Both the position numbers and the translations under genes were made by a program. The notes beneath the pieces were generated by a model. It did no database searches. It was not told the DNA's origin and saw only the letters and a program-made list of their open reading frames with translations. From the IMG/VR virus record IMGVR_UViG_2648501149_000017: a stretch of 15,337 nucleotides of DNA; one strand, written 5' to 3'. Positions 1,609 through 13,673 of this stretch are shown piece by piece (positions within the stretch are counted from its first letter, which is position 1; each line of letters begins with the position of its first letter). This DNA comes from a virus. Taxonomy: Duplodnaviria; Heunggongvirae; Uroviricota; Caudoviricetes.

Positions 1609-2799
1609 ATGATGCTGAATGCCCGCAAGGTTGAAGCTGCGAAAGGAAAAGAGAAGAGCTACAAGCTGTTTGATGGAGGTGGCCTATACCTTCAGGTCGA
1701 ACCTAATGGCTCGCGTTACTGGCGTATGAAATACCGTTTTGCTGGTAAAGAGAAACGATTGTCCTTTGGTGTTTATCCAACAGTCACACTTGCTGATGCC
1801 AGACAAAAACGAGAAGACGCGAAGAAACTACTCGCAGCAGGTGAAGATCCCGGCGAAGTCAAAAAAGCCAAAAAGCAGGCTTTAAATGCAGCGATTGAGA
1901 CACTTAACCCATTCAGAGAAGTGGCGTTAGAGTGGCACAAAATGAAATCACCCAAATGGTCTGAGGGCTATGCTTCCGACATCATTGAGGCATTCGAGAA
2001 AGACATTTTCCCGCATATTGGGCACAGACCTATAGCTGATATTCAGCCCCTTGAACTGCTTGAAGTTCTGAGGTTGATAGAAGCTCGAGGCGCTATGGAG
2101 AAAGCGAAGAAAGTCCGTCAGCGATGCGGTGAAGTTTTTCGCTATGCCATCGTAACGGGTAGGGCAATCTACAATCCGGCACCGGATCTTGCCAGTGCGA
2201 TGCAAGGACATGAAGCAGTCCACTATCCATTCCTCAAAGCCAACGAACTACCGGAGTTCTTTAATGCCCTTAATTCTTATTCAGGAAGTCCAATTGTATT
2301 GTTGGGGGCGCATTTACTTATCCTGACAGGTCTACGAACTGGAGAACTACGAGCAGGTGAGTGGCGAGAGGTGGATTTTGATAATGCGGTGTGGGAGATC
2401 CCAAAAGAACGTATGAAAATGCGTAGGAGCCATATTGTCCCGTTGTCAAAACAAGCATTATCCCATCTCAAAAGTTTGAAAGAACTAACTGGGAACTACC
2501 CGCTGATGTTCCCTGGACGCAACGATCCTAGCAAATTTATGAGTGAAGCAAGCATTAATCAGGTGTTTAAACGTATTGGATATGCAGGGCGTGTTACGGG
2601 GCATGGTTTCAGGCATACGATGAGTACAATCCTACATGAGAAAGGATTTAACAGCGCTTGGATTGAAACCCAGCTTGCTCATTCGGACAAAAACTCTATT
2701 CGTGGAATTTATAACCATGCCCAATATCTCGAAGGGAGAAGAGAAATGATGCAATGGTATGCTAATTATTTATCTGAGCTAATTGGTACTCATAAATGA
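1609..2799 (+). CDS. int: P4-type tyrosine integrase
   Basis: N-terminal arm-binding-type region (KEKSYKLFDGGGLYLQVEPNGSRYWRMKYRFAGKEKRLSFGVYP) and C-terminal catalytic region with HGFRHT and a YNHAQY tyrosine segment. The listed ORF starts at a TTG at 1540; first ATG is at 1609 (tandem ATG ATG), which I take as the start. Confidence 0.92.
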   Translation: MMLNARKVEAAKGKEKSYKLFDGGGLYLQVEPNGSRYWRMKYRFAGKEKRLSFGVYPTVTLADARQKREDAKKLLAAGEDPGEVKKAKKQALNAAIETLNPFREVALEWHKMKSPKWSEGYASDIIEAFEKDIFPHIGHRPIADIQPLELLEVLRLIEARGAMEKAKKVRQRCGEVFRYAIVTGRAIYNPAPDLASAMQGHEAVHYPFLKANELPEFFNALNSYSGSPIVLLGAHLLILTGLRTGELRAGEWREVDFDNAVWEIPKERMKMRRSHIVPLSKQALSHLKSLKELTGNYPLMFPGRNDPSKFMSEASINQVFKRIGYAGRVTGHGFRHTMSTILHEKGFNSAWIETQLAHSDKNSIRGIYNHAQYLEGRREMMQWYANYLSELIGTHK

Positions 2800-3620
2800 A
2801 TATTTTAAAAATTAATAATACTGATTCTCTGCTCAGAGATTACTACCAGTTGGATGAAGCTTCAGAAAAAATTGGTTGTAGTGAAAAGGATATACTCTGG
2901 TTTGCCAGAGAACGAGATGTAGAGCTATGCATGGAATTCCATGATGATGAGTATGATGTTTCATGTGGTTTGAAGATTGATGGTCAAATGGATGAGTTCT
3001 TATCTAATCTGAAATATTTACCACGAGATAGAAATGGCAATATTATGTTGTCAGACTTAAGTTCTATAAGAATCCCTGATGAAGATAATTTAATTGATAA
3101 AAATGGTTTTATTCGATGTTTCATATCCGGTTTATGGGCTGTTGATTATGAATATAAAGATCTGTTAGTTAAGCATGAGGGGCAACCGGATTCTTGGCCT
3201 ATTCATTTTCTACTGGCGGGTACGCCTAATATAAATTGTAAGGTAATTCTTTATGTAAATTATGATGAAAAAGAAAATTATTATCTTTTTGAGGTTTTGT
3301 GGATTACAAAGGTACAGATTCAAAAATTCATTGATATAGTCTTATGCGAACAAAAGCGGATAAAAAACGCCAATAAATATAAATCACAATCTGAGGCGCA
3401 AAAACAAAAACATGCTGTTCCTCGAGCTGAAATACTCATGGCTATTATTTCGCTCTATCATCGTGATATGAGGCTAAGAAGAGAGAGTCCAGCAGCGATA
3501 GCTGATTATCTTTTTCAACATGCCAGTGAGTTCTGGCCTAAGACCGGAGAACCGCCTTTGAGCTATGATACTGTTGTTAGTTTGCTACGTAGTTGCATGA
3601 AAAACATTAAGTTTAACTAA
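2796..3620 (+). CDS. hypothetical protein (AT-rich, unknown function)
   Basis: 274-aa ORF whose ATG overlaps the integrase stop (ATGA), suggesting translational coupling; base composition is visibly more AT-rich than neighbouring core genes. No family recognised. Confidence 0.6.
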   Translation: MNILKINNTDSLLRDYYQLDEASEKIGCSEKDILWFARERDVELCMEFHDDEYDVSCGLKIDGQMDEFLSNLKYLPRDRNGNIMLSDLSSIRIPDEDNLIDKNGFIRCFISGLWAVDYEYKDLLVKHEGQPDSWPIHFLLAGTPNINCKVILYVNYDEKENYYLFEVLWITKVQIQKFIDIVLCEQKRIKNANKYKSQSEAQKQKHAVPRAEILMAIISLYHRDMRLRRESPAAIADYLFQHASEFWPKTGEPPLSYDTVVSLLRSCMKNIKFN

Positions 3621-3745: not shown

Positions 3746-4036
3746 ATGTTATCTAAACATGATAATACTACTTTGCAACGACCTTCAATGGATTCTCTGA
3801 TCGATATGAAGTTTATTACTTCCGATTGTTTATTAAGTGATAAATGGATTTATCGATTGATTTCTCTGAATCGCTTTCCAAAACCTATAAAAATAGGTCG
3901 GATGTCACGATGGCGCGCTGCTGATTATTATAAGTGGCGAGATGGGTTTGAAGAAAACTCAGGTCAACATTTTGAGGGAATGAGAAATAAGGCAAGAGCA
4001 ATTAATAAAGGGAATAGATTATCACCTACTCCCTAA
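3746..4036 (+). CDS. alpA: AlpA-family (prophage CP4-57 regulatory protein-like) HTH transcriptional regulator / excision regulator
   Basis: Motif LLSDKWIYRLISLNRFPKPIKIGRMSRWRAADYYKW resembles the AlpA HTH signature (RFPKP.K.G ... W); RBS ACGGAG upstream. An internal ATG at 3788 is an alternative start. Confidence 0.78.
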   Translation: MLSKHDNTTLQRPSMDSLIDMKFITSDCLLSDKWIYRLISLNRFPKPIKIGRMSRWRAADYYKWRDGFEENSGQHFEGMRNKARAINKGNRLSPTP

Positions 4037-4068: not shown

Positions 4069-4242
4069 TTAGCCTTTAGGGTCAATCCCGCGTGATTGGA
4101 GTTCTTTGCGTAAAATTCTTTTAATCCAAGTTGCCAACGCGCTATCTCCATCTTTGCGCATTTCGTTTTCGAGTTGCAACCTAAAATCGTCGGTAAGACG
4201 CATTTGGAATGGTGGAGAACGTTTCTCTTGTGGTGTTGACAT
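4069..4242 (-). CDS. Arc/MetJ-type ribbon-helix-helix DNA-binding protein (57 aa); not in the ORF track
   Basis: Minus-strand translation: MSTPQEKRSPPFQMRLTDDFRLQLENEMRKDGDSALATWIKRILRKELQSRGIDPKG; pattern of an N-terminal beta-strand (FQMRLTDDF) followed by two helices is Arc-like. Start codon overlaps a palindromic repeat. Confidence 0.65.
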   Translation of the reverse strand: MSTPQEKRSPPFQMRLTDDFRLQLENEMRKDGDSALATWIKRILRKELQSRGIDPKG

Positions 4243-4282
4243 GGTAATTACCCTAGAATATGATGACTACATGGTAATTACC
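4243..4282. promoter_or_regulatory. Two copies of the 10-bp perfect palindrome GGTAATTACC (4243-4252 and 4273-4282), each preceded by CAT; candidate operator
   Basis: Seen directly: CATGGTAATTACC occurs twice 30 bp apart, at the start codon and in the upstream region of the Arc-like gene, inside the divergent region shared with the icd-like operon. Confidence 0.5.
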
Positions 4283-4310
4283 ATTGTAAGTATAGTTCGC
4301 TTGTAAAAGC

Positions 4311-4345
4311 AATGCCCGATTGTGCGGGAACACAAATCGGGCATT
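4311..4345 (+). other. Perfect 11-bp inverted repeat (AATGCCCGATT / AATCGGGCATT) with 13-nt loop in the leader upstream of the icd-like gene
   Basis: Seen directly; lies 29 bp upstream of the ATG at 4374. No T-run follows, so not a classical intrinsic terminator; could be an operator or RNA structure. Confidence 0.45.
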
Positions 4346-4373
4346 TAACCAACCGTTATAAGAGGTAACGAAG

Positions 4374-4550
4374 ATGGCTAAACAGAAGTGTACCTGGTTA
4401 TTTGCGGCGATCAACCGCAGTCAACGCAATGCCTGTCCTGTGATGTTAAGGATCACCGCAGATAACGAGCGGTCAGCGCGGCGCAGACTTGCCCCGGACT
4501 ATGTACTGAGCTTTGCCGGGCGCATTCCCTGCGGAGGTGAACATGCGTAA
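4374..4550 (+). CDS. Icd-like host cell division inhibitor (58 aa); not in the ORF track
   Basis: Translation MAKQKCTWLFAAINRSQRNACPVMLRITADNERSARRRLAPDYVLSFAGRIPCGGEHA; the W.FAA ... RR.LAP ... LSFA.R.P pattern matches my recollection of P4 Kil/Icd-like proteins. RBS AGAGG upstream; stop overlaps the next ORF start. Confidence 0.65.
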   Translation: MAKQKCTWLFAAINRSQRNACPVMLRITADNERSARRRLAPDYVLSFAGRIPCGGEHA

Positions 4551-4902
4551 TTATCCGCACCCCGGCGAACGCTGGCAGCATGAACGTGGCTGGACGGTCA
4601 CGATTATCCGATTAATAGAAGCCTCGCCCTCTGTGGCGCTGGTTAATCCTGAATTCAGCTGTGAAGTGCTGATACGTCATGACAGCGACAACCAGCTTTC
4701 TTCCTGCCCTCTGGCATGGTTTGAACAGCGGTATACGCGCCTGTTTGATGTACCGCTCTTTAAGCCTGCACCAGCTCCTGCAGGCGGTAGTGGTTCCGGC
4801 CCGCTGACACTGCATCCGTCTGTGCTATTTATCCGCTGGCGGGAGCGTAGCATATGGCGTTCTGCTGAGCCTGACGACGGTCACTATTCAAAGTTTCTCT
4901 GA
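4543..4902 (+). CDS. hypothetical protein
   Basis: ORF with GGAGG RBS and ATG at 4543 (the listed ORF begins at an upstream TTG, 4513); contains a Pro/Gly/Ser-rich linker (KPAPAPAGGSGSGP). Family not recognised. Confidence 0.6.
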   Translation: MRNYPHPGERWQHERGWTVTIIRLIEASPSVALVNPEFSCEVLIRHDSDNQLSSCPLAWFEQRYTRLFDVPLFKPAPAPAGGSGSGPLTLHPSVLFIRWRERSIWRSAEPDDGHYSKFL

Positions 4903-4933: not shown

Positions 4934-5218
4934 ATGAATATTTCAAACGGGCACAACGGTGCTCAGGGCCACACTTTGCCTGAAAAACACAATACCGGTG
5001 CTTTTGCCTATGGGTTGTCAGAGGACAGTTTCGGAAAGCTGACCCGCGCAAGAAATGCCTGCGACATGCTCCAGCTTCTCTTTTCTGAATACCCGTCTCA
5101 GGCCGGAGCACTGGACGCTGGCTGTGCGCATGGTGTCGCCGCGCTGATGGAGTACCTGCTGGCAGATTTGACGGATATTGCACACAGTTGCGCACTGATT
5201 GAAGGAGGTGCCAGATGA
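4934..5218 (+). CDS. hypothetical protein
   Basis: 94-aa ORF with GGAG RBS; stop overlaps the next start (ATGA). No recognisable motif. Confidence 0.55.
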   Translation: MNISNGHNGAQGHTLPEKHNTGAFAYGLSEDSFGKLTRARNACDMLQLLFSEYPSQAGALDAGCAHGVAALMEYLLADLTDIAHSCALIEGGAR

Positions 5219-5598
5219 ACCAGCCGCAGGTTTCCATTTTCCCGGCAGAAATGACCACCGCGCTTTACCGGCGGGCTATTGCTTCAGCATGGCGGCAGAA
5301 AATGCTGAACGAAACTGGCAGTGATCAGTATGGTCCGCACAGCCTGACGGTGGAGCGTATTGAAATGGCCATTGCGCTGCATATCGAGTGCGTACTGATT
5401 AACGAGTACGGCGAAGTGCAGGGCGCCGCTACCGCGCTGGCACTGCTGACTGACATGCTGGAGCCGTCACTGCTGACCGCGCCGCCGGTACTGACCGCGC
5501 GCGGCTGTGAAGTGATGGCGGAGATGTACCGCACGCTTCCGGCGGCCTTTGATGACTTCTGCAGTACCGGTGTGACGTTGTATGAGGGGGAAGTATGA
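5215..5598 (+). CDS. hypothetical protein
   Basis: 127-aa ORF with AGGAGG RBS; translationally coupled on both sides (ATGA overlaps). Confidence 0.6.
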   Translation: MNQPQVSIFPAEMTTALYRRAIASAWRQKMLNETGSDQYGPHSLTVERIEMAIALHIECVLINEYGEVQGAATALALLTDMLEPSLLTAPPVLTARGCEVMAEMYRTLPAAFDDFCSTGVTLYEGEV

Positions 5599-8267
5599 CA
5601 ATACGGACGGTTACGCAGATTTCAGCCGCCGCACGGGGGAAATGGCCTGTTATTCTGCAGATGCTGCGTATTGATGTACCTGAAAACGGCAGGCACGGTC
5701 CCTGCCCGAAATGTGGGGGCAAGGATCGTTTTCGCCTTGATGACCTTGACGGGCGCGGGACGTGGATCTGCAGCCAGTGTGGCAATGGTGACGGTCTGGA
5801 TCTGGTTAAGCTCGTAACCGGTTACAGCGTCAGAAAGGCTGCGCAGGAGGTGGCGCAGGTGCTTAATGTGCCGGATGTGCAGGAACTGCCTGTTAAGCCT
5901 GCCAGACAAAAAGCCCCTAAACGAGACATGGGTCTTACCGTGGCGGCGCTGATGAAAGAGAGCCACACGGGAGAAAGTGCCTATCTGACAGGAAAAGGGT
6001 TCGCCGGATACCCGGCCTCTCTGACCGGAAGCGTGCAGCATATCAGCGGTAAGGATTTTCCTGCCGGTTCCCTGCTGTTACCACTCACGACCAACACCGG
6101 AGCCGTGACCGGTGCACAGCTTATCGCCCCGACGGGTGAAAAAAGCATACTGCCCGGCAGCACGATGAAAGGCGCGTTTGTGTCGCTCAGCCCGTTACCG
6201 TCTGAACCACCGGTACAGGTGGTGATTACCGAAGGTTACGCTACGGCGCTGACGGTAAGCCAGCTCACTGCCGGATGCGTAGTGGCTGCCATATCTGCGG
6301 GCAACCTGCCCAATGTGGCGCAGTCGCTGCGGGCACGCTGGCCTGAGGTAAAAATTATCATCGCCGGTGATAACGATTTTCAGGACGGGGGGGAGAATCC
6401 CGGCAGAGCCTTTGCTGAACGGGCGGCAAAAGCTGTTGGCGGCTGGATGACGCTGCCACCAGGAGAGATTAAGGCTGACTGGAATGACTTTCATCGGGAG
6501 CACGGTATTACCCGTGCCCGTGAAGCCTTTCGCAACGGTCTGGTACTGTGCGGGGAAGGCCGCACGCAACTGCCGCACGGGTTCCGTCTTACCCAGGAAT
6601 ATCTCTGGTATGAAAAGCAGGTACAGCGCAACGGTGAGACGGAGATCCAGAACGTCAAAATATGCAGCCCGCTGCGCGTGACGGCAATTACCTGCGATGC
6701 CGATGGCGGTAACTTCGGACGACTGCTGGAATGGGAAGATACGTGGGGTGAGTGTCGCCGCTGGGCGATGCCAATGGAAATGCTGAGCGGCAGTGGTGAG
6801 GAACTGCGCCGGGTACTGCTGGTTAACGGGCTGTCTTATATCAGCACCACCGGTGAGGCACGCGCACGCCTGATGGAATATATCTCACTGTGTAAACCGG
6901 AACGCCGCGTGACCTGCGTCAGTCGTACTGGCTGGCATGGTCAGGTTTACGTCCTGCAGGATGAGGTCAGCGGTGAAGGTGCAGAGGGTGTCATTCTCCA
7001 GACCACTTCCGTGCAGGGGCGTGATTTCCGCGTGTCGGGCACAACAGAGGAATGGCGGGAGCATGTATCCCGCTACTGTACCGGCAACTCCCGCGTGGCA
7101 TTTGCTGTCAGCCTGGCCTTTGCTGCACCACTGTTACGGCTGGTTGGTATGGACGGCGGCGGCTACCACCTCAAAGGGGAATCGACAGACGGTAAGACCA
7201 CCACCATGAAAGCGGCAACCTCCGTCTGCGGCGGGCCTGACTACTGGCAGACATGGCGGGCCACCGGCAACGCGCTGGAGGGATGCGCCAGCCGCCGTAA
7301 CGATGCCGCCATGATGCTTGATGAGATCCGGGAAGTTGACGGACGCGAGGCAGGCAATATCGCCTACATGCTGGCAAACGGTCAGGGCAAGGGCCGTGCC
7401 GGTACGGACGGTGAGCTGCGTACCCGTAAGCAGTGGCGCCTGTTGTTCTTTTCAACTGGCGAGTTGTCTCTGACCGAACATGCGGCAAAGGCCGGTGAGC
7501 GTACTTTTGCCGGGATGGAAGTCAGGATGATCCAGATCCCCAGCGATTCCGGGAAGTTTGGCGTTTTTGAGGAGCTGCACGGCTTCGACAGCGGCAAGGC
7601 TCTGGCAGAGCATCTTGAATGGGCCACGTCCTGCTACTACGGTTCGCCGTTCCGGGAGTGGCTGAAAGCACTGACCGCTGATCTTAACGGACTAACGGCA
7701 CAGGCAAAATCGCTGATGAAGGAATATGCTGCCGCCCTGACTCCGAAAGATGCAGGCAATCAGGTGGGCCGGGCTGTGAACCGCTTTGCACTGGTGGCGA
7801 TGGCAGGTGAACTGGCAACCCGTCTGGGTATCACCGGCTGGCCTGAGGGTGAAGCACTGCGGGCAACCCGCGTCTGCCTGAACGCATGGCTGAAAGATCG
7901 CGGGCACACCGCCAATCAGGAAGATATCGCCGCACTGGAGCAGGTTCGCAGTTTCTTTACCGCGAATCAGTACAGCCGCTTTGCAGACTGGTATGACGAG
8001 CGCAACCGCCCCGGCAATATGGTGGGCTGGCGCAGGGTGGAGAAAGGCAGTACCGCGCAGGGCACGGAAGCTGTCACTACGTTCTATGTCATGCCGTCCG
8101 GCTGGAAAGAAATCTGCAGGGGATTTGACCCGCGCAAGGTGGCGCGTCTGTGCGCAGATCGTGGATACCTGCTGCCCTCCACTGATGGCAAACTCCAGAC
8201 AACCATTCGCCCGCCAGAGATGAATCCCCGCAGGCTCTATGTCTTCAACAGCGAGGTGCCGGGTTAA
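5595..8267 (+). CDS. P4 alpha-type bifunctional DNA primase / P-loop NTPase (helicase-like)
   Basis: N-terminal zinc ribbon (CPKCGG ... CSQCG), TOPRIM motifs (ITEGYATAL ... IAGDND), then a P-loop domain with Walker A-like GESTDGKTT and Walker B-like MMLDE. Confidence 0.92.
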   Translation: MTIRTVTQISAAARGKWPVILQMLRIDVPENGRHGPCPKCGGKDRFRLDDLDGRGTWICSQCGNGDGLDLVKLVTGYSVRKAAQEVAQVLNVPDVQELPVKPARQKAPKRDMGLTVAALMKESHTGESAYLTGKGFAGYPASLTGSVQHISGKDFPAGSLLLPLTTNTGAVTGAQLIAPTGEKSILPGSTMKGAFVSLSPLPSEPPVQVVITEGYATALTVSQLTAGCVVAAISAGNLPNVAQSLRARWPEVKIIIAGDNDFQDGGENPGRAFAERAAKAVGGWMTLPPGEIKADWNDFHREHGITRAREAFRNGLVLCGEGRTQLPHGFRLTQEYLWYEKQVQRNGETEIQNVKICSPLRVTAITCDADGGNFGRLLEWEDTWGECRRWAMPMEMLSGSGEELRRVLLVNGLSYISTTGEARARLMEYISLCKPERRVTCVSRTGWHGQVYVLQDEVSGEGAEGVILQTTSVQGRDFRVSGTTEEWREHVSRYCTGNSRVAFAVSLAFAAPLLRLVGMDGGGYHLKGESTDGKTTTMKAATSVCGGPDYWQTWRATGNALEGCASRRNDAAMMLDEIREVDGREAGNIAYMLANGQGKGRAGTDGELRTRKQWRLLFFSTGELSLTEHAAKAGERTFAGMEVRMIQIPSDSGKFGVFEELHGFDSGKALAEHLEWATSCYYGSPFREWLKALTADLNGLTAQAKSLMKEYAAALTPKDAGNQVGRAVNRFALVAMAGELATRLGITGWPEGEALRATRVCLNAWLKDRGHTANQEDIAALEQVRSFFTANQYSRFADWYDERNRPGNMVGWRRVEKGSTAQGTEAVTTFYVMPSGWKEICRGFDPRKVARLCADRGYLLPSTDGKLQTTIRPPEMNPRRLYVFNSEVPG

Positions 8268-10766: not shown

Positions 10767-11726
10767 ATGCTAACCAGGGCTGAAAATATAAGAAAAATCA
10801 CAAGCTATTTAGCTATTCTCTCAAGAGAGGTTGAGATTAGTGCCTCCCTCAATCTTTTGGATATCAACGTTCAAGCGGAATCTTTTTATAGAGATTTCTT
10901 AAACTTATGTTATGGATATAATTTAAGAAATACCAATAGTGAAGAGCAAAACTACCAAGCAATAGATCTTGCTGATGAAGATCGGAAGATTGCTATACAA
11001 GTAACTTCAACTTCTGACTTGGGAAAAATTAAGAATACAGTTGATGGATTTATAAAAAGTAAGCAATATGAAAAATATGATAGACTAATTGTACTGAATA
11101 TAACTGAAAAGAAAAAGCACAGATTGAAAGAGTATGGAATAGCCGGGTGCTATGTAATTAATATCAAAGATGATGTATGGGATTATAAGGATATAATTAG
11201 AAAGATAAACGATTTGAATGATTGTGATATATCAACAATATGCTCATTTTTGGAACGTAATATTAATACTAAAGCTGCTGATAAACCGCCGAAAGAAGTC
11301 ACAACTATGTTTGCGATGATTGAATTATTGAGTGATGATGCTCACCCATTGGCAGGAAATGGATTTATTGAAGAGCCTAATCCTGAAAATAAAATATATA
11401 AAAGATTTTCAGATTATTCAGAGCGGTTGATTGGCTTATATACTGGGTTAGCTCCATTATATAGTGGGATATTTAAGTCAATAAAAGAACAGAGCGATAT
11501 TGGTATCGTAAGGTACCAAAAGATGAGTTTGTATTTAGAGTCATTTAGTGATAAGGTCTTAAGAAGCCATGGTGGAGATCCTATCTTGGCGCTTAATTAT
11601 TTAAAAGAATATTTTTCTAAACAACTGAGCCAGAGAAATGTAGATTACGATGAAACAGCTATCAAATTTTTCTTAATTGAGAATTTAATTGCATGTAACG
11701 TCTTTCCTAATTCGGAGATTCTTTGA
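10767..11726 (+). CDS. cargo protein with SMEK-like N-terminal domain (putative effector of a three-component ABC-ATPase system)
   Basis: 319 aa, AT-rich; the N-terminal segment LNLLDINVQAESFYRDFLNLCYGYNLRNTN ... QAIDLADEDRKIAIQVTSTS resembles what I recall as the SMEK domain found in conflict systems. AGGGA RBS. Assignment is from memory, not a search. Confidence 0.55.
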   Translation: MLTRAENIRKITSYLAILSREVEISASLNLLDINVQAESFYRDFLNLCYGYNLRNTNSEEQNYQAIDLADEDRKIAIQVTSTSDLGKIKNTVDGFIKSKQYEKYDRLIVLNITEKKKHRLKEYGIAGCYVINIKDDVWDYKDIIRKINDLNDCDISTICSFLERNINTKAADKPPKEVTTMFAMIELLSDDAHPLAGNGFIEEPNPENKIYKRFSDYSERLIGLYTGLAPLYSGIFKSIKEQSDIGIVRYQKMSLYLESFSDKVLRSHGGDPILALNYLKEYFSKQLSQRNVDYDETAIKFFLIENLIACNVFPNSEIL

Positions 11727-11974
11727 TGTTAAGTTTTTTTTCGAAAGATGAGGATTTGACAAAATCCCCTCCTGTTGTAGGGGCTAAAATTCTTAATTTA
11801 TTTGACGAAACAAAAAAAGAAAAAATTAGTATTTTCGATTTAGCAAAAGAATTAAAGAAAAACAACTCTCTAGGAGTGCGTGCAATTTATTTTGGAATGG
11901 TCTTTCTTTATACTCTTGATCTTATCGATTTCGATGAGCCATATGTGATAAATAAAAATGTTAAGAATAAATAA
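11726..11974 (+). CDS. small middle-component protein (about 82 aa) of the three-gene cassette
   Basis: ATG at 11726 overlaps the upstream stop (TGATG); the listed ORF begins at a TTG at 11723. Its 3' end overlaps the ATPase gene by 17 nt. Size and position between effector and ATPase fit an ABC-three-component middle component or a Lamassu LmuC-like protein. Confidence 0.55.
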   Translation: MLSFFSKDEDLTKSPPVVGAKILNLFDETKKEKISIFDLAKELKKNNSLGVRAIYFGMVFLYTLDLIDFDEPYVINKNVKNK

Positions 11975-13673
11975 ACTATATAGCATACCAGAATCTTTTG
12001 AGCCAGTAAGCTTTGATAGTGGCATCAATATCATCTTAGGTGAAAAAGATGTTTCATCTAACAAAACTAATGGAGTGGGTAAAACTCTTTTAATAGAGTT
12101 TATTAATTTTTGTTTATTAAAAGAATTTAAGTCGAGTAGAGTTTCTAAAATTCCTCATTCTGATTTTTCGAAAGACATTTTGATATGCCTTGATTTTAAT
12201 ATTGATAATATTAACATTATATCCCAGCGTTCTATTGGGAAACATAATGAGCCAACACTTGTAATAAATGGAAAAACAATAGAGTTTAGTGGATTAGATG
12301 ATGCGTTATCTCATTTAAGCAATCTTATCTTTAAGAATAGTAAGGGTATACTTCATCCATCATTTAGAGCGATGCTGGGGCCTCTGATACGCGATGAACG
12401 ATCTGAATTTAAATCTATTGTTGAGTGCTTCGACACAAAATTACATATACCTGCTGACTATACTCCTCATCTTTATTTGTTAGGTATTGATATTGCTCCC
12501 TATAAAGAGGCAAAGATTTTACAACGAGAAATAGATGATTTATCAACTACAAAAAATAAAATAAAGAGAGATATTGAATTTCTGACGGGAAAAAAAATTA
12601 GTTCTGCAAAGGCAGAGGTTAATGATCTTAAATCAAAAGTTGAACATATCAGAAACGCTATGGATGCATTTGATAGCGATAGCAGTTATGAACTTATCAA
12701 AGATGAAGTAGAAGAATTAGAAAGTTCTTTAGAAGAGTTGCGGAATAAAAGAACAATACTTAAGTTAGAGCTTTCAAGAATAAATGCTCTCGTTGGTGAA
12801 GTATACATAAATGATGATGAAGTGGTTGAAATTTATAATAAATTTAAAGTTGGATTAGGTGATGCTATCAAAAAAGAACTTAATGATGTTATTTCATTTA
12901 AGAAAAAAATAGATCACTTCCAAAACACTTTGTTAAATACGCGAAAAGAAACATTACTTTCTGAATTGCGTAAGATATCAGATAAGCTATATACAGTAAA
13001 TAGACTTTATAAAGAAAAAGCTAGTGTTTTTGAGCAGGCGGGGGGGTTTAAAAGCCTGAAAATTTTAATAATGACTTATCAGAAAAAGTTAGAGGAGTAT
13101 TCACAGTTATCTTCATTGCTTAAAAAATTTGAAGATTTCGATTCTAAATGGAAAGTTAAGAAGTCAGAACGCTCTTCTATGATAATTTCGTTAGATCTTT
13201 CTATTATGGATAACGAAAAAACGATTGAATCTTTTGAGGAAACCATTTTATCAATCCATGAATATGTTTTTGGAAATAGAAAGTGTTCTTTCGAAATTAA
13301 GGCGACAGAGAAGAAAGAAACTATCTCAATGGATTTAAGAATTGATGATGACGGTAGTCATAGTAATGAGCGAGAAAAGGTTTTCTTTTATGATTTGGCT
13401 CTTTTACTTACAGAAGAAACGTTTCGACGTCACCCTGGATTATTAATTCATGATAATATTTTTGATGTGGATCAAGATACATTAATTAAAAGCTTGAATT
13501 ATTTGGCAGAGAAATCCAGTTGCTTAAATGATGCACAATATATTTTGACGTTAAATAGCGACAAAATTAGTGAAATTGATAAAAGAGATTTGAAACTAGA
13601 TATTAACTTCTATAAGCGAGCTTCGTTAACTAAAATAAATAGATTCCTGGGAAGGCATTATCAAGAAATATAA
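11958..13673 (+). CDS. ABC/SMC-like ATPase (Lamassu LmuB-like / ABC-three-component ATPase)
   Basis: 571 aa; N-terminal head with P-loop (INIILGEKDVSSNKTNGVGKTLLIEF), long charged probable coiled-coil middle (many E/K heptad-like stretches), C-terminal Walker B / D-loop-like LLIHDNIFDVDQD. Confidence 0.65.
   Translation: MLRINKLYSIPESFEPVSFDSGINIILGEKDVSSNKTNGVGKTLLIEFINFCLLKEFKSSRVSKIPHSDFSKDILICLDFNIDNINIISQRSIGKHNEPTLVINGKTIEFSGLDDALSHLSNLIFKNSKGILHPSFRAMLGPLIRDERSEFKSIVECFDTKLHIPADYTPHLYLLGIDIAPYKEAKILQREIDDLSTTKNKIKRDIEFLTGKKISSAKAEVNDLKSKVEHIRNAMDAFDSDSSYELIKDEVEELESSLEELRNKRTILKLELSRINALVGEVYINDDEVVEIYNKFKVGLGDAIKKELNDVISFKKKIDHFQNTLLNTRKETLLSELRKISDKLYTVNRLYKEKASVFEQAGGFKSLKILIMTYQKKLEEYSQLSSLLKKFEDFDSKWKVKKSERSSMIISLDLSIMDNEKTIESFEETILSIHEYVFGNRKCSFEIKATEKKETISMDLRIDDDGSHSNEREKVFFYDLALLLTEETFRRHPGLLIHDNIFDVDQDTLIKSLNYLAEKSSCLNDAQYILTLNSDKISEIDKRDLKLDINFYKRASLTKINRFLGRHYQEI

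Follow-up and report, generated by a model that had tools for sequence, protein, structure and literature searches.

How does a P4-like satellite that carries none of the regulatory RNAs of P4 keep its replication genes silent while it sits integrated in the chromosome? The question is raised by a stretch of 15,337 nt (the window, meaning the whole of the DNA analysed), which is a P4-like satellite of E. coli, inserted at tRNA-Thr beside proA. Rfam searches detected C4/CI RNA, isrK and c4-a1b1, all three, in P4; none was found in the whole window at E-values up to 1, or between positions 4000 and 5000 at E-values up to 10, and the Rfam sar model had no match in the window. The initial annotation had placed a small Arc-like repressor gene with paired palindromic candidate operators upstream of the icd-to-primase operon, and had proposed that a protein serves here for immunity instead of P4's RNA. 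The P4 RNAs are indeed absent, but the second half of that proposal needs amending, as control would lie with a protein plus an antisense RNA. For Gram-negative PICIs, Fillol-Salom et al. (PMC6092414) called the global repressor unclear, and the capsid-forming PICI (cf-PICI) preprint makes no mention of any repressor. We found no published description of the 57-aa protein, of the antisense RNA, or of any ribbon-helix-helix (RHH) or Arc-like repressor in P4-like satellites or PICIs.

The left part of the element holds, in order, the integrase gene, a 274-aa ORF, an AlpA/Vis-like helix-turn-helix gene and, on the opposite strand, the 57-aa ORF. The right part continues with the icd-like gene, two small ORFs, DUF5375, primase, sid-like, psu, delta, and a variable region carrying SMEK and DUF2326 genes. 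The operon itself reads icd, orf119, orf94, DUF5375, primase and ends at 8267 (annotation; PHROG primase 1139). Past delta, at 10767-13673, a SMEK-domain gene, a small ORF and a DUF2326 gene occupy the position of a known P4 defence hotspot. An otherwise 99.9% identical element in strain VG12A2 (L001) has an IS1A inserted in the 274-aa ORF downstream of the integrase gene (L001 7659-8356 versus window 2796-3620). The genes and signals framing the locus are the following:

3746-4036, plus strand: AlpA/Vis-like helix-turn-helix gene, convergent with the repressor gene (Pfam Phage_AlpA, E = 4e-4; PHROG 66, excisionase and transcriptional regulator; PGAP).
4009-4034, minus strand: terminator-like hairpin downstream of the repressor gene (consensus scan only).
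4069-4242, minus strand: gene of 57 aa for a predicted RHH (Arc/Mnt-like) repressor, ATG start at 4240-4242, translation MSTPQEKRSPPFQMRLTDDFRLQLENEMRKDGDSALATWIKRILRKELQSRGIDPKG.
4106-4306, plus strand: overlapping 66-aa ORF with a TTG start, judged spurious, running across the operators and promoter.
4360-4365, plus strand: icd Shine-Dalgarno sequence, AAGAGG.
4374-4550, plus strand: icd-like gene, 58 aa, at the head of the operon thought to be controlled (NCBIfam phage_ICD_like, E = 5e-23).

The 57-aa ORF is a real gene. It lies on the minus strand at 4069-4242, with its ATG start, where it had been claimed; that it was unlisted is true only in part, for identical RefSeq elements carry it as a hypothetical protein (WP_001605077.1, PGAP), while the O157:H7 homologue has no annotation. 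Conserved homologues, on which the claim of a repressor gene depended, exist: a search of 5.8 billion proteins returned 85 cluster representatives, nearly all of about 57 aa, from Enterobacterales, Pasteurellaceae, Gilliamella and Oceanimonas/Oceanisphaera. Two relatives bear the NCBI name ‘Arc family DNA-binding protein’. The family is compact, given that an exhaustive profile search yielded only 40 representatives at 50% identity. Across 27 distinct alleles of the gene the variable columns by codon position number 33/23/52, which we count as support for purifying selection in its frame, the statistic being shared with the overlapping plus-strand frame. The plus-strand ORF is best taken as spurious, as had been suspected: stop codons interrupt it in 6 of the 27 alleles, it has no family match, and PGAP makes no call there. 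Variability at third codon positions was also tried as a ground for dismissing it and proved uninformative, because this ORF shares its wobble positions with the minus-strand gene and the measure cannot separate the two frames.

The predicted fold and the family-level profile matches agree with the RHH nature ascribed to the protein. Its AF2 model (pLDDT 76) shows two helices preceded by an extended N-terminus, the order of elements by which the RHH superfamily (MetJ/Arc clan) is recognized, namely an N-terminal beta-strand and then two helices within about 45 residues. Profile checks against Pfam gave a divided answer: the window protein itself has no match at E-values up to 1, whereas Arc (PF03869) is the family most often matched by its relatives (13 of 42; best E = 1.5e-4), two of which score 15.3 and 18.5 bits, below the 20.4-bit cut-off. 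The 57-aa protein matches PHROG 228 (‘Arc-like repressor’) with E = 0.003, and its remote relatives match HicB, Arc, RHH_1 and RHH_5. In hhalign comparisons with the P22 record proteins, at a probability of only 15-17%, the alignment spans the strand and first helix and sets PPFQMRL in register with PQFNLRW of Arc and PHFNFRM of Mnt. The base-contacting residues of the Arc beta-strand alternate (Q9, N11, R13). Direct searches of Pfam, NCBIfam and PDB sequences with the 57-aa protein returned nothing meaningful; profile matches in the PDB were to designed helical repeats, an artefact of two amphipathic helices, and Foldseek gave only weak E-values against the PDB, the top matches being NikR RHH domains. 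On the strength of the model and profiles we would file the protein in the RHH superfamily as Arc-like, rather than as a member of Pfam Arc proper.

A protein of this fold might also be a type II antitoxin or a ParG/omega-like partition protein. We regard either as extremely improbable: the gene, monocistronic and convergent with alpA, is followed by a terminator-like hairpin, and its operon includes no toxin or ATPase partner in the window, in the O157:H7 element or in the Pasteurella element Pmp8. In Pmp8 (L070) and in the O157:H7 locus L072, too, the gene stands alone and convergent with alpA, and we reject the toxin-antitoxin reading for want of a partner gene.

Two perfect GGTAATTACC palindromes lie 30 bp apart at 4243-4252, abutting the start codon, and at 4273-4282, and they fall within the divergent region facing the icd-to-primase operon, all as initially annotated; both overlap the strong rightward promoter of that operon. 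With up to one mismatch, GGTAATTACC has four matches in the window against 0.39 expected, and none of 200 shuffles reached four. The true repeat unit is 14 nt, ACATGGTAATTACC. The regulatory signals of this interval read as follows:

4236-4264, plus strand: rightward early promoter P_E, -35 TTGACA at 4236-4241, 17-nt spacer, -10 TATGAT at 4259-4264, matching the consensus at 11 of 12 positions.
4241-4254, no strand: candidate operator O1, core GGTAATTACC at 4243-4252, lying within the rightward promoter's spacer, immediately next to the start codon of the repressor gene.
4271-4284, no strand: candidate operator O2, a perfect 14-bp palindrome, ATGGTAATTACCAT, core at 4273-4282, over the expected starts of both opposed promoters.
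4283-4312, minus strand: putative repressor promoter, -10 TACAAT at 4288-4283, -35 TTGCTT at 4312-4307, 18-nt spacer, start expected within O2 (read from sequence).

The two palindromes thus flank the -10 element of P_E: O1 fills the spacer, and O2 spans roughly +1 to +14 of a transcript expected to start at about 4271. The -35 element of P_E is the reverse complement of repressor codons 1-3 (Met-Ser-Thr), and this location would account for the conservation of an N-terminal MS(T/I/S). The arrangement recurs in other loci: TTGACA stands at the same offset within codons 1-3 in 39 of 45 distinct loci, a perfect 10-mer begins at a fixed offset just past it in about 30 of 45, a palindrome directly adjoins the start codon, with gap 0, in most of 46, and the distal palindrome lies 30-31 bp from O1 in 30 of 46. 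The repressor promoter is weak by consensus and not among the sites returned by the consensus scan, so that it is less well supported than P_E; in 26 of 46 loci a TAnnnT hexamer adjoins O2, and TTGnTT commonly precedes it by 17-18 nt. Elsewhere in the window, one-mismatch operator cores (GGTGATTACC and GGCAATTACC) occur inside the primase gene at 6221-6230 and 6683-6692 and are probably due to chance. Operator copies were also sought in the helper phage P2, which has no perfect one; its three one-mismatch matches are intragenic and near chance (5 of 100 shuffles scored as high).

Which protein would bind these sites? Among about 45 distinct loci O1 and O2 change in concert, remaining symmetric and keeping their positions, and each operator class goes with a particular beta-strand motif:

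Operator GGTAATTACC: protein motif ..SP(P/Q)(F/Y)QMRL, the window type.
Operator TGTAATTACA, at both sites: protein motif ..TDQYQ(I/L)RL, in 8 of 8 loci that retain palindromes.
Operator GGTATATACC: protein motif ..PQFPMRL, in which the predicted base-contacting Q13 has become P.
Operator GTGTAATTACAC: protein motif ..NPPFQFRL.

Where Q13 has become P, the operator centre reads ATAT instead of AATT. There are exceptions: L055 and L056 have the ..TDQYQ(I/L)RL motif without palindromes, and Pmp8 has mixed sites, a Q13 protein being paired with one GGTATATACC site. To alter a symmetric sequence at both sites requires four coordinated substitutions, while the stretch separating O1 from O2 drifts freely, which argues for one symmetric binding factor, and a symmetric RHH dimer would be consistent with palindromic sites that evolve together.

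That factor need not be the 57-aa protein. The corresponding part of P4 contains origin repeats and Vis sites, and an AlpA-like gene adjoins the locus here, so the palindromes could belong to an AlpA/Vis-like protein, to the primase as origin iterons, or to a host protein, the ORF having an unrelated role. Mosaic elements separate these candidates. In L059, L060 and the E. coli locus L075, icd and primase are 97-98% identical to those of the window, yet the repressor is only 54% identical and the palindromes are different, the breakpoint being the icd Shine-Dalgarno sequence. Conversely, in the O157:H7 element the replicase is another, unrelated one and AlpA shares only 31% identity, yet the operators are the same and the repressor retains 74% identity. 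The operators therefore differ where the primase is 98% identical and persist where AlpA and replicase have diverged or been replaced; their changes follow the N-terminus and beta-strand of the repressor and neither AlpA nor the replicase. On this evidence we reject the origin-iteron and AlpA-site readings; it leaves binding by some other factor a very slim chance; it argues that the palindromes follow the repressor rather than other proteins. The co-variation in part reflects shared descent, because gene and operators are adjacent. As a separate observation, in some 260 E. coli genomes the match to the window (94-98%) starts only at 4314 or 4348 and runs rightwards, and these two approximate positions are recombination breakpoints at terminator-hairpin edges that delimit an exchangeable cassette. 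Mosaic exchange of the cassette accounts for the abrupt divergence, immediately upstream of icd, of satellites that are otherwise nearly identical.

The interval from O2 to icd contains a structured, conserved element overlooked in the initial annotation. It is described by two features:

4303-4379, minus strand: putative cis-antisense small RNA of about 75 nt, whose 5' AGCCAU is complementary to the icd start (ATGGCU).
4387-4414, minus strand: putative promoter of this RNA within the first icd codons, -10 TACACT at 4392-4387, -35 TTGATC at 4414-4409, 16-nt spacer.

The RNA runs from AGCCAU through a first hairpin with an anti-Shine-Dalgarno loop and a linker to a GC-rich second hairpin (4311-4345) and a U-run, the last two forming a predicted intrinsic terminator; it covers the ribosome-binding site and start codon of icd, and its U-tract overlaps the likely -35 element (TTGCTT) of the repressor promoter. 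Covariation points to a maintained structure: across 38 distinct sequences, compensatory changes occur at 13 of 19 pairs, and the share of paired cells is 96%, a value reached in none of 500 shuffles and compared with 35-49% in slid controls. The strand is unambiguously minus from the asymmetry in pairing and G-U pairs: read as minus, 96% of cells pair and 110 are G-U, whereas read as plus the figures are 81% and 3. The window copy has a fold z-score of -5.3. In 40 of 41 distinct loci a TAnnnT hexamer lies inside the first gene, whichever that is, and its end is exactly 7 nt upstream of AGCCAT. Our covariance model of the element (R1) detects it in loci outside the training set, O157:H7 included, and has no match in P4 or P22. 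Rfam offered SymR (RF01809) alone, sub-threshold at 31.6 bits versus a gathering threshold of 61; we read this as a resemblance of layout, an antisense RNA over a start codon, and claim no homology.

Taken together, we think it likely that the 57-aa protein, as an Arc/Mnt-like repressor, controls the icd-to-primase operon through two operators, with the antisense RNA as a second layer. A repressor dimer would bind the two near-identical palindromes, O1 between the -35 and -10 elements of P_E and O2 over the transcription start, and so silence the icd-to-primase (replication) operon while the satellite sits integrated. From the promoter geometry we infer autoregulation as well: the protein probably limits its own synthesis, because O2 also covers the start of its leftward promoter, and the two promoters, overlapping head-on, should exclude each other. 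Transcripts that escape repression would be silenced by the antisense RNA, if it is expressed as predicted, through pairing with the icd ribosome-binding site and start codon. One way for a helper to release the block might be read-through from upstream under AlpA, a route suggested by the absence of any detected plus-strand terminator behind alpA.

In the published model of Gram-negative PICIs, control is exerted by the activator AlpA (PMC6092414), so the 57-aa repressor may not be the master switch. It could bind its palindromes as a mere local safety device, as Mnt and Arc do for ant, keeping a toxic icd-like gene quiet while the life-cycle switch lies with AlpA, Delta or helper signals. 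Besides the reported induction of Gram-negative PICIs via AlpA (PMC6092414; cf-PICI preprint), the antisense RNA targets icd specifically, and the Pasteurella testudinis locus L037 additionally has isrK and C4 downstream of the same promoter. Set against this, icd heads the sole visible operon leading to primase, and our consensus scan of the plus strand from 4264 to 4700 revealed no further promoter-like site, so that repressing P_E would shut the replication genes too. We consider a purely local role unlikely and retain repression of the whole icd-to-primase operon as our preferred reading.

Locus L037 combines the RHH cassette and antisense RNA with the P4-type RNAs on the operon strand (isrK at 4507-4595, C4 at 4644-4723; repressor at 5001). 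It is the exception among 13 sampled relatives, the remaining 12 lacking C4 and isrK, and it rules out a strict mutual exclusion of RHH cassette and C4. In E. coli the P4-type region is the commoner one, found in 1312 genomes (at least 80% coverage) versus 67 with the window allele; any detectable allele of the cassette occurs in about 455 E. coli genomes, some 389 of which carry diverged copies, mostly of the O157:H7-type element.

The cassette extends to satellites of other kinds. The capsid-forming PICI-like element of E. coli O157:H7 strain 4276 (L072), with genes for int, an HTH protein, an icd-like protein, RepA helicase, PerC and the major capsid protein, contains an intact 57-aa homologue at 6001-6174 on the minus strand; it is absent from the PGAP annotation, which draws an ‘incomplete Icd-like’ pseudo CDS (5558-6151) over it on the other strand. 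In E. coli satellites with an identical Icd protein, the same spot holds either the NPPFQF allele or a small protein of the YlcI/YnfO family. One of these (L074) encodes a YlcI/YnfO-family protein of 61 aa at 2189-2374 on the minus strand, whose sequence looks strand-helix-helix and contains ..QLNARFP.., and has three GTGCGATTCAC repeats at 2394-2490, upstream of the same kind of hairpin; this locus appears to be an alternative cassette at the same position. The 15-kb Pasteurella ‘phage’ Pmp8 (OR544139.1), submitted under that name, has the look of a capsid-forming satellite, with capsid, portal, terminase, primase and AlpA-like genes, a repressor/icd-like module at 5007-5183 and the Rfam int-alpA RNA. 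Five Photorhabdus loci (L023, L024 and L026-L028) carry two repressor/operator cassettes about 1.2 kb apart (at ~3782 and ~5001), which may reflect tandem or nested elements.

The 57-aa protein, with its defined early-promoter operators, would thus be a concrete candidate for the silencing of Gram-negative phage satellites, one common to P4-like satellites and to the O157:H7 capsid-forming PICI, where it is unannotated and where a genetic system with known helper phages exists (cf-PICI preprint). The allelic operator-protein pairs would supply a natural set of orthogonal small repressors. More speculatively, and with rather more doubt than confidence, we put forward the cassette as the missing master switch of Gram-negative capsid-forming PICIs (including those of the EcCIEDL933 type) and of some P4-like satellites. 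If so, immunity groups of satellites would be set by its interchangeable alleles, of which at least five operator classes were seen in addition to the unrelated YlcI/YnfO-type cassette found at that position, and helper phages would defeat the repressor and induce the satellite via an anti-repressor or AlpA-driven read-through.

Among known systems, P4 immunity occupies the same position, between vis/alpA and the icd, epsilon, alpha operon, and performs the same task of keeping the replication operon silent. P4 differs in that its regulator is a processed RNA of the sense strand, directed at its own leader, and in lacking any homologue of the 57-aa protein. P4-like satellites usually have P2-like phages as helpers, and the C/Pe/Pc switch of P2 resembles the cassette in that the start of the repressor gene overlaps the early-promoter -35, O1 lies in the spacer and O2 just past the -10, and the repressor promoter faces the early promoter. 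P2 C, however, is not known to be an RHH protein; the switch region of P2 has no annotated antisense RNA, and no perfect GGTAATTACC occurs in P2. In plasmid pMV158 the RHH repressor CopG and RNA II control copy number, so that there too a replication gene is held down by two agents together, a transcriptional repressor of the RHH type and a short antisense RNA. There, copG is co-transcribed with repB and RNA II targets the initiator itself, whereas the cassette repressor is divergent from its operon and the cassette RNA would target the upstream icd-like gene.

The closest parallel in layout is immI of P22, in which mnt runs leftward, Pant and Pmnt overlap, and the sar promoter lies inside ant (annotation; PMC2629481). 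Its parts differ from those of the cassette. P22 has two proteins and two different operators, the window one RHH protein and two like operators; no arc gene follows the promoter in the window operon; the -35 overlaps the repressor start codon here; and the presumed target is the satellite's icd-plus-primase replication operon, in place of an antirepressor. No homology between components was found: neither Rfam nor R1 links sar to the antisense RNA, and the similarity to Arc and Mnt is marginal. The plan is nonetheless shared. In both, the gene for a small RHH repressor points away from a strong promoter that its own opposed promoter overlaps, with one operator in the promoter spacer (Oarc in P22) and another over the start site (Omnt); and in both a cis-antisense RNA of about 70 nt, predicted in the window, lies over the ribosome-binding site of the target and has its promoter in the 5' end of the target gene. 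With its three parts, repressor, twin operators and antisense RNA, the switch of the satellite would appear to be built like P22 immI.
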